From the sequence record PP274704.1: a DNA stretch of 64,000 nucleotides; one strand, written 5' to 3'. The notes below the pieces were generated by a model that worked only from the letters and a program-made list of their open reading frames with translations, was not told the DNA's origin and ran no database searches. This stretch comes from Escherichia phage ECp13. Shown piece after piece: positions 40,805 to 41,229 of this stretch. The position numbers were made by a program, and so were the translations under genes. Numbering within the stretch: the stretch's first letter is position 1; the number at the start of each line of letters is the position of its first letter.

Positions 40805-40869
40805 ATCGTGAATATAAAGAGCCTCTTAAACTCGATTGGGCAGATGATTTAAAATAATTTCACAAAGTT

Positions 40870-40899
40870 GTTTACATGCTGATGAGGTAGTGATACTAT
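40870..40899 (+). promoter_or_regulatory. early sigma70-type promoter
   Basis: GTTTAC (40870-40875), 18 bp, TACTAT (40894-40899) with TG upstream; 31 nt before the IP-like gene start. Confidence 0.6.
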
Positions 40900-40929
40900 T
40901 ATCTCATCAAAATTAATTAGGAAAATAAA

Positions 40930-41187
40930 ATGAAAACTTTCAAAGAGTTTGCTACAAAAACCACTATCACTGAATCTTCTCACGGTATGGAAGTAAAGCT
41001 TGGAATGGCTTTAGCTGAAGCTGAGCGTCTTTTCTCTCGTATTAAAGAACTTGCTGCTGCAGTCGATCCTTCATCTTTTAAAGGAGACCAAACTAAAGTT
41101 AAAGCACTTTTAGCATTATGCTCCGATGCAGGAGAAATTGCTAAAAATGGTTCTAAGATGAAGAAACGATTAGAAGATTTAAAATAA
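40930..41187 (+). CDS. internal-protein-like small protein with capsid-targeting-like N-terminus
   Basis: 85-aa ORF at the T4 ipI position; MKTFKEFATKTTITE resembles the T4 IP targeting sequence (MKTYQEFIAE) with an I-x-E gp21-type cleavage motif. Confidence 0.6.
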   Translation: MKTFKEFATKTTITESSHGMEVKLGMALAEAERLFSRIKELAAAVDPSSFKGDQTKVKALLALCSDAGEIAKNGSKMKKRLEDLK

Positions 41188-41199
41188 TTTCACAAAGTT

Positions 41200-41229
41200 G
41201 TTTACATAGGGTTTTAGTTGTGATACTAT
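41200..41229 (+). promoter_or_regulatory. early sigma70-type promoter (repeat copy of 40870-40899)
   Basis: GTTTAC, 18 bp, TACTAT; embedded in a 32-bp exact direct repeat of the copy upstream of the IP-like gene. Confidence 0.6.

Follow-up and report, generated by a model that had tools for sequence, protein, structure and literature searches.

The analysed DNA comprises 64,000 nucleotides of Escherichia phage ECp13 (PP274704.1; hereafter the window) and belongs to a T4-like phage (Tequatrovirus), the best match being Shigella phage Sfk20 with 99.2% over positions 40100 to 43300. On the plus strand, gene 1 (dNMP kinase) is followed by 57A, 57B, ip5, tRNA.4, tRNA.3, tRNA.2, and the tRNA region. 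Gene 57B (40403–40857, plus strand) corresponds to acb1, which encodes an anti-CBASS 2H phosphoesterase (Pfam PF23474 Acb1, E 3e-52, profile positions 1–122 of 144), and is disrupted in the window. Compared to T4, RB32, and Sfk20, one nucleotide is deleted in a GGGCCC run near 40762/3, because of which the open reading frame (ORF) stops at 40804 and comprises 133 instead of 151 amino acids. This shifts the final 31 ancestral codons out of frame; the former C-terminus (…DWADDLK-stop) lies at 40762–40857 in a different frame. This frameshift may reflect a genuine mutation that inactivates the gene, or an error in sequencing the homopolymer. On the right-hand side, tRNA.4 (41258–41443, plus strand; phrog_1692), which encodes a putative membrane protein of 61 amino acids, forms the conserved anchor of a variable interval. 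The anchor was set by this ORF; ARAGORN called no tRNA genes in the window.

The tRNA cluster further downstream (42700–42890) is largely missing. Rfam returned two tRNA-like matches in this section (42710–42781, 30 bits; 42784–42880, 49 bits), and the remnants are a 5'-truncated tRNA-Pro and a tRNA-Ser/tRNA-Arg chimera. Three segments are absent in comparison with Sfk20, which harbors 10 tRNAs (4126–4389, 4516–4917, and 4954–5317 of the Sfk20 locus). The arrangement of the window's tRNA cluster was found in one piece in none of the 741 matching phage records.

The gene ip5 (40930–41187, plus strand) encodes an internal head protein of 85 amino acids. Its position between 57B (Pfam Acb1) and tRNA.4 corresponds to one of the two internal protein (IP) loci, the other being the ipII/ipIII region. 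The product starts with MKTFKEFATKTTITE and ends with LEDLK-stop within the second copy of the repeat described below. All of its residues (1–85 of 85) are covered by the match to phrog_3499 ("internal head protein", E 1e-49), and it is 100% identical to Ip5 of RB15 (CAA84462; GenBank Z35082, entitled "Bacteriophage RB15 DNA for Ip5, Ip9, Ip7, Ip8"). Identical proteins are also encoded in RB32, T6, fPS-90, and Sfk20. Only PHROGs provided a name for the protein, as no relative was found in the Pfam, NCBIfam, and PDB sequence searches. The predicted structure consists of two long helices forming a helical hairpin (single-sequence AlphaFold, pLDDT 79). When the ip5 segment was used as a query, 251 phage records covered at least 80% of it. 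Other records, including T4, matched only the first ~76 nucleotides, which contain the right half of the promoter, the ribosome-binding leader, and the MKTFKEF codons.

The first 15 codons of ip5 (40930–40974, plus strand; MKTFKEFATKTTITE) were identified as a capsid-targeting leader by comparison with IpI of T4. The targeting-like N-terminus that had been ascribed to the 85-amino acid gene in the preliminary description matches the T4 IpI leader (MKTFKEF…ITE). The leader conforms to the type MKT[FY][KQ][EK]F, and the MKTFKEF of Ip5 equals the start of T4 IpI. In the related proteins, the corresponding sequences are MKTYQEF (Ip6 and Ip9), MKTFKEF (Ip7), and MKTYQKF (Ip8). The tripeptide I-T-E is located at residues 13–15 of Ip5, and the same tripeptide closes the leader of T4 IpI (residues 17–19). 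In T4 head assembly, the cleavage site of the prohead protease (gp21) follows the consensus [L/I]-x-E. From its leader, Ip5 is predicted to be cut after I-T-E (residue 15), packaged in the head, and injected together with the DNA.

Two copies of GATTTAAAATAATTTCACAAAGTTGTTTACAT, located on the plus strand at 40846–40877 and 41176–41207, mark the limits of ip5. The repeat had been described as exact over 32 bp, which was confirmed: the identity covers the 32-mer and not one further base at either edge. No third copy is present in the 64-kb window when up to three mismatches are allowed, and no match occurred in 100 dinucleotide-preserving shuffles, so that no copies are expected by chance. A looser similarity of 83% extends over 69 nucleotides (40842–40910 compared to 41172–41240). 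As had been pointed out before, the short sequence TGATACTATTA was likewise found again downstream of both copies (40891–40901 and 41221–41231); in each case, it is located at an offset of +45 from the start of the repeat. Copy 1 contains the last three ancestral codons of 57B plus the stop codon (GAT TTA AAA TAA), followed by the A/T-rich stretch TTTCACAAAGTT upstream of the promoter and by GTTTAC as the −35 box. In copy 2, the last three codons of ip5 and the stop codon are followed by these two promoter parts.

The repeat reaches by 12 nucleotides (GATTTAAAATAA) into two unrelated coding sequences (57B and ip5). According to the preliminary description, each copy supplies DLK-stop to the gene ending there. 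This holds for copy 2, in which ip5 ends with LEDLK-stop, but not for copy 1, the DLK-stop of which is out of frame with 57B in the window; in the relatives, it does terminate 57B. In Ip5-bearing phages, the repeat extends over 12 nucleotides of coding sequence, with 57B and Ip5 sharing DLK-stop, a small detail for which no statement was found elsewhere. Taken as a whole, the 32-bp repeat makes up the upstream halves of two junction elements that follow one another. Each element runs from the stop codon of the gene before it through the A/T-rich TTTCACAAAGTT, the −35 box GTTTAC, and a 17-nucleotide spacer to the extended −10 box TGaTACTAT.

A promoter scan located T4-type early promoters for ip5 at 40870–40899 and for tRNA.4 at 41200–41229 (both plus strand), and the GTTTAC/TACTAT early promoter that had been proposed for each repeat copy is accordingly matched in sequence. 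In the ip5 promoter, the −35 box GTTTAC and the extended −10 box TGaTACTAT are separated by the 17-nucleotide spacer as measured between the scan hexamers TTTACA and TACTAT. TACTAT is preceded by TG in both promoters, and TTTAAAATAATTTCACAAAGTT constitutes an A/T-rich region upstream of the promoter. In the T4 record X03016, the equivalent sequences are annotated as early promoters, namely PE2 in front of ipI and PE1 behind it; the ip5 and tRNA.4 promoters correspond to PE2 and PE1, respectively. Predicted early promoters are also annotated at each junction in the record of fPS-90. As judged from these sequence matches, both promoters are presumably active in the window phage.

Both −10 boxes of the window are enclosed by a predicted hairpin. 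Hairpin 1 (40880–40909, plus strand; −14.8 kcal/mol, z −3.2) has A-type arms (CTGATGAGGTAGT and ACTATTATCTCATCA), and the equivalent sequence is annotated as "pot. stem-loop structure" in X03016. Hairpin 2 (41196–41242, plus strand; −16.9 kcal/mol, z −4.2) has B-type arms (ATAGGGT and ACCCTAT) with the outer arms AGTTG and CAACT. None of 200 shuffles was as stable as the window hairpins. In X03016, PE2 and PE1 are each overlapped by a "pot. stem-loop structure", the second of which is also designated "pot. IpI terminator". An intrinsic-terminator scan called neither hairpin of the window terminator-like, and a T-run is absent 3' of both. The complete hairpin 1 can form only in RNA that is read through from upstream, and the hairpins might act on such read-through RNA as attenuators or terminators. 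A late-promoter motif (TATAAATA) was detected by motif scan within gene 1 at 39798–39805 (plus strand); it matches PL1, for which a "pot. −10 region (PL1)" is annotated at the equivalent place in gene 1 in X03016. Late read-through transcripts that span 57A, 57B, and ip5 probably originate from this motif. Plausibly, Ip5 is produced at the early stage from its own promoter and at the late stage via read-through.

Altogether, nine matches to the T4-type early promoter (GTTTAC-N16–18-TAnnAT) were found in the window, all of them on the plus strand. Sites elsewhere in the window are situated at 43887–43955, 44253–44289, and 48288–48323, further ones at 44811, 51397, 55590, 59601, and 61040 (all plus strand). 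At the site at 44253, a hairpin (ATAGGCTCAT…ATGAGCCTA) again surrounds the −10 box. The site at 43887–43955 is a weaker copy of the junction element with 61% identity to the reference copy, and it does not fold. Because the TTTCACAAA…GTTTAC part of the repeat resembles two other early promoters of the window (at 43905 and 59589), some of the identity between the two copies is due to promoter constraint rather than to a recent duplication.

This raises the question of whether the two copies are just ordinary early promoters kept alike by selection, in which case the differences in cassette content between phages would have arisen by unrelated illegitimate events. The abundance of such promoters on the plus strand speaks for this explanation, as do the TTTCACAAA upstream motif shared by several of them and the estimate that about 20 of the 32 bases are constrained by promoter function alone. 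However, promoter function does not account for the 12 nucleotides (GATTTAAAATAA) by which the repeat extends into two unrelated coding sequences. Furthermore, the two copies are identical at 32 of 32 positions, whereas the other early promoters reach at most 61% identity over the element. A further argument comes from the positions of the module boundaries in related phages.

For this comparison, the interval from the stop codon of 57B to the ATG of tRNA.4 was measured in the window and 12 relatives. The shortest interval, 70 nucleotides without any module, was found in the phages A6-6 and bov10K1. Single modules account for intervals of 370 nucleotides (Ip6; JK1 and Shigella phage A2), 400 nucleotides (Ip5; the window and Sfk20), and 437 nucleotides (IpI; T4). 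Longer intervals carry Ip5 and Ip6 (698–699 nucleotides; T6 and fPS-90), a truncated ipI followed by Ip6 (740 nucleotides; 101117BS1), Ip5 and Ip7 (776 nucleotides; T2), Ip5, Ip9, and Ip7 (1111 nucleotides; RB32), or Ip5, Ip9, Ip7, and Ip8 (1415 nucleotides; RB15). Thus, zero to four ip modules (IpI, Ip5, Ip6, Ip7, Ip8, and Ip9) are present per phage among the 12 relatives, with a junction element at every boundary. The comparison of the interval between 57B and the tRNA region had been suggested as a check in the preliminary description, and its outcome is that the cassette content changes exactly at the junction elements. Both elements are present in seven of seven Ip5-bearing phages (the window and six relatives), that is, ip5 did not occur without its flanking repeats, and a single element was found only where the cassette is absent. 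According to the record of RB32 (DQ904452), Ip5 "replaces ipI"; for Ip9 and Ip7, the record gives the remark "flanked by 43 bp direct repeat". Compared to RB32, exactly Ip9 and Ip7 are missing in the window, which is the segment between the 43-bp direct repeats of RB32. In Escherichia phage vB_EcoM-101117BS1, ipI is cut to 32 codons and persists as a pseudogene remnant (632–730 of its locus) upstream of an intact Ip6 module; the locus is therefore subject to decay as well as swapping.

The product predicted for a recombination between the two repeat copies was constructed by joining 40500–40877 to 41208–41600 and searched in phage records. This deletion product, which retains one repeat copy and lacks ip5, was recovered as a single contiguous match in the Escherichia phages A6-6 and bov10K1, in which the stop codon of 57B is directly followed by a junction of the tRNA.4 type. 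The suggestion that the cassette could be gained or lost at the repeats is thereby supported, given the module variation at the elements and the contiguous empty site in two phages. The empty site may be ancestral, or it may have resulted from the loss of Ip6 rather than Ip5; the junction of bov10K1 has a TAGTAGT variant, as found before Ip6 in JK1. An assembly collapse across the short repeat could in principle also produce an empty site.

The natural variation also bears on the explanation by promoter selection. All module boundaries in the 12 relatives lie inside junction elements, an exact empty site exists, and chimeras with swapped arms occur (see below); random illegitimate events would not give such a pattern of breakpoints. 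We therefore regard selection on ordinary promoters combined with illegitimate events as a very unlikely cause of the observed arrangement. Another conceivable explanation is an assembly or sequencing artefact, by which the junction between 57B and tRNA.4 would have been spuriously duplicated around a misplaced fragment. The window does contain other oddities, namely the homopolymer frameshift in 57B and the deletions in the tRNA cluster. However, RB15, RB32, T2, T6, and fPS-90, which have been sequenced independently since 1994, possess the equivalent elements on both sides of the gene, and the ip5 segment is covered in the 251 phage records mentioned above. Sfk20 shows the order 57B, junction, ip5, junction, and tRNA.4 with junctions that agree base for base. 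The artefact was rejected on account of these independent genomes, and its probability is close to nil.

The left and right halves of the junctions assort independently around a common core, GTGATACTATTA. In T2, for example, the junction between Ip5 and Ip7 combines a B-type left arm with an A-type right arm. Altogether, 26 junctions from 11 genomes (the window and ten relatives) were folded, of which 23 yielded structures of −10 to −19 kcal/mol. The remaining three are mixed-arm junctions with a B/C-type left and an A-type right arm located before Ip7 in RB32, RB15, and T2 (locus positions 2943, 705, and 921, respectively), and they fold with −4 to −8 kcal/mol only. From their sequences, these mixed-arm junctions resemble scars left behind by crossovers within GTGATACTATTA, the core of the hairpin loop. 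In the A-type and the B/C-type stems, both arms differ, yet the arms of each type pair with each other, which suggests that the hairpin is under selection. On the other hand, the hairpin is not indispensable, as three natural junctions exist without a good one.

The conserved hairpins with their compensatory arm types would also fit a mechanism in which a hairpin or cruciform is targeted by structure- or sequence-specific recombination and ip5 is excised as a promoter-carrying mini-circle, which could be exchanged between co-infecting phages. Packaged, transferable mini-circles consisting of a promoter and a gene have been the subject of speculation for the PeSLs of RB49/phi1, and crossovers at the loop core, as seen here at GTGATACTATTA, are reported for the RB49 PeSL mini-circles (PMC2839356). 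However, GTGATACTATTA is also the longest stretch common to all junction types, and ordinary homologous recombination would be expected to cross over at this very position as well. Among the neighbors of the locus, the ORFs, Pfam, and PHROGs revealed no candidate for a recombinase. Moreover, Arbiol 2010 (PMC2839356) treats the T-even elements as analogues of the PeSLs with weaker stems and not as homologues. Excision as a mini-circle is thus unlikely. If it were true, the extension by 12 nucleotides into coding sequence and the shared DLK-stop would mark a fixed cassette boundary and not an accident of one ancestral crossover.

The explanation that we favor, with a probability of roughly 85%, is that the region represents the ipI-type hyperplastic internal protein locus of Tequatrovirus in an Ip5-only state, the modules of which are exchanged by homologous recombination in the junction elements. 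According to this model, each ip gene would be a self-contained module that starts with a junction element (promoter and overlapping hairpin) and continues with two conserved leaders, one for ribosome binding and one for capsid targeting (type MKT[FY][KQ][EK]F…[ILV]xE), and a variable payload. Because the junction elements, and often also the leaders, are near-identical between neighboring modules and between co-infecting T-even phages, homologous recombination of T4 could cross over within them. Such crossovers would delete, insert, or swap whole ip genes, and each surviving gene would keep an intact promoter. A homology of less than 50 bp is sufficient for T4 recombination according to PMC2839356. 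For the window phage itself, module turnover at the repeats is suggested by natural relatives that differ by whole modules.

Two further ORFs with leaders resembling those of internal proteins were noticed in the window. The first is part of a second repeat-bounded cassette (43192–43786) and encodes 157 amino acids (43273–43746; phrog_2280) with a capsid-targeting-like start (MKSYAQFLNE). It has its own late-promoter motif TATAAATA at 43225 and is flanked by a 36-nucleotide direct repeat (43192–43227 and 43751–43786; 92% identical) made up of strong terminator hairpins. The product predicted for its deletion, which retains a single repeat, was found in one piece in T4, T2, RB3, W143, and others, and the ORF is kept in many relatives; in the RB32 record, it is described as "flanked by 34 bp imperfect direct repeat". 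The other ORF (48775–49248) also encodes 157 amino acids, starts with MKTYQEFITEAA…, and has the motif TATAAATA upstream at 48733. It probably belongs to the second (ipII/ipIII) IP locus.

With respect to function, Ip1, Ip2, and Ip3 are inhibitors of GmrSD type IV restriction enzymes, each acting on a distinct one (PMC12373910). By analogy, an anti-restriction role is most likely for Ip5. As the three proteins differ in the GmrSD that they disarm, host range is probably adjusted by the set of ip modules in the phage. The locus illustrates in textbook fashion the reshuffling of small anti-defence genes by large lytic phages: with its own promoter and packaging leader attached to each ip gene, short homologies are able to swap whole genes while the regulation remains unbroken. 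The real value of flagging this locus lies in Ip5, which is common among the phage records and yet has no known target.

The closest known system is the T-even IP locus of Repoila, Tetart, Bouet, and Krisch (1994; EMBO J 13:4181; RB15, Z35082), which, according to later papers citing it and to the GenBank record, has the same flanking genes, the same junction elements, and the same variation by whole modules. RB15 carries four modules, whereas the window is Ip5-only, as is Sfk20; otherwise, there is no substantive difference. In T4 (ipI, X03016), the same promoter and hairpin elements are located on both sides of the gene, which also shares the 5' leader and the first seven codons (MKTFKEF). 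The first junction element (J1) of T4 differs from that of the window in two bases over GTTTAC…CTCATCA, and the second one (J2) is near-identical. In contrast, the payload of IpI is unrelated (95 amino acids compared to the 85 amino acids of Ip5 with its two predicted long helices), and the exact repeat of T4 comprises only ~22 bp (ATTTCACAAAGTTGTTTACATA) without the stop codon or the DLK codons.

The junction elements also resemble the PeSLs of RB49/phi1, PST/T4, and nt-1/KVP40, which PMC2839356 and PMC4122927 describe as composites pairing an early promoter with a stem-loop, located between small non-essential genes in hyperplastic regions. In both systems, the elements form the limits of the indels by which relatives differ, and crossovers map to the loop. 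The T-even IP elements differ from the PeSLs by their T4-type early promoters and by AT-rich stems without the GGGG/CCCC tracts (PMC2839356). Moreover, the hairpins of the window overlap the −10 box and lack a terminator T-run, whereas the stem-loop of a PeSL is situated beside the promoter. An assignment to the bona fide PeSLs of the RB49/phi1 type, which have a sigma-70-like promoter with a G/C-rich stem next to it, was rejected because of the AT-rich stems of the window (CTGATGAGG…, ATAGGGT…) and their overlap with the −10 box. Arbiol 2010 (PMC2839356) and Comeau 2014 (PMC4122927) credit Repoila 1994 with PeSL-like elements, composed of a promoter and a stem-loop, at both T-even IP loci.

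A third likeness concerns the anti-GmrSD hotspot genes encoding Ip1, Ip2, and Ip3 (PMC12373910): these are small injected proteins that have only the N-terminal packaging leader in common and are encoded in a variable hotspot. Ip1 to Ip3 have GmrSD targets (PMC12373910), whereas Ip5 is without a known target and without a relative in Pfam, NCBIfam, or PDB. The arrangement of promoter-bounded cassettes at this locus is already known from the T-even phages, and the window adds one more Ip5-only array to it.
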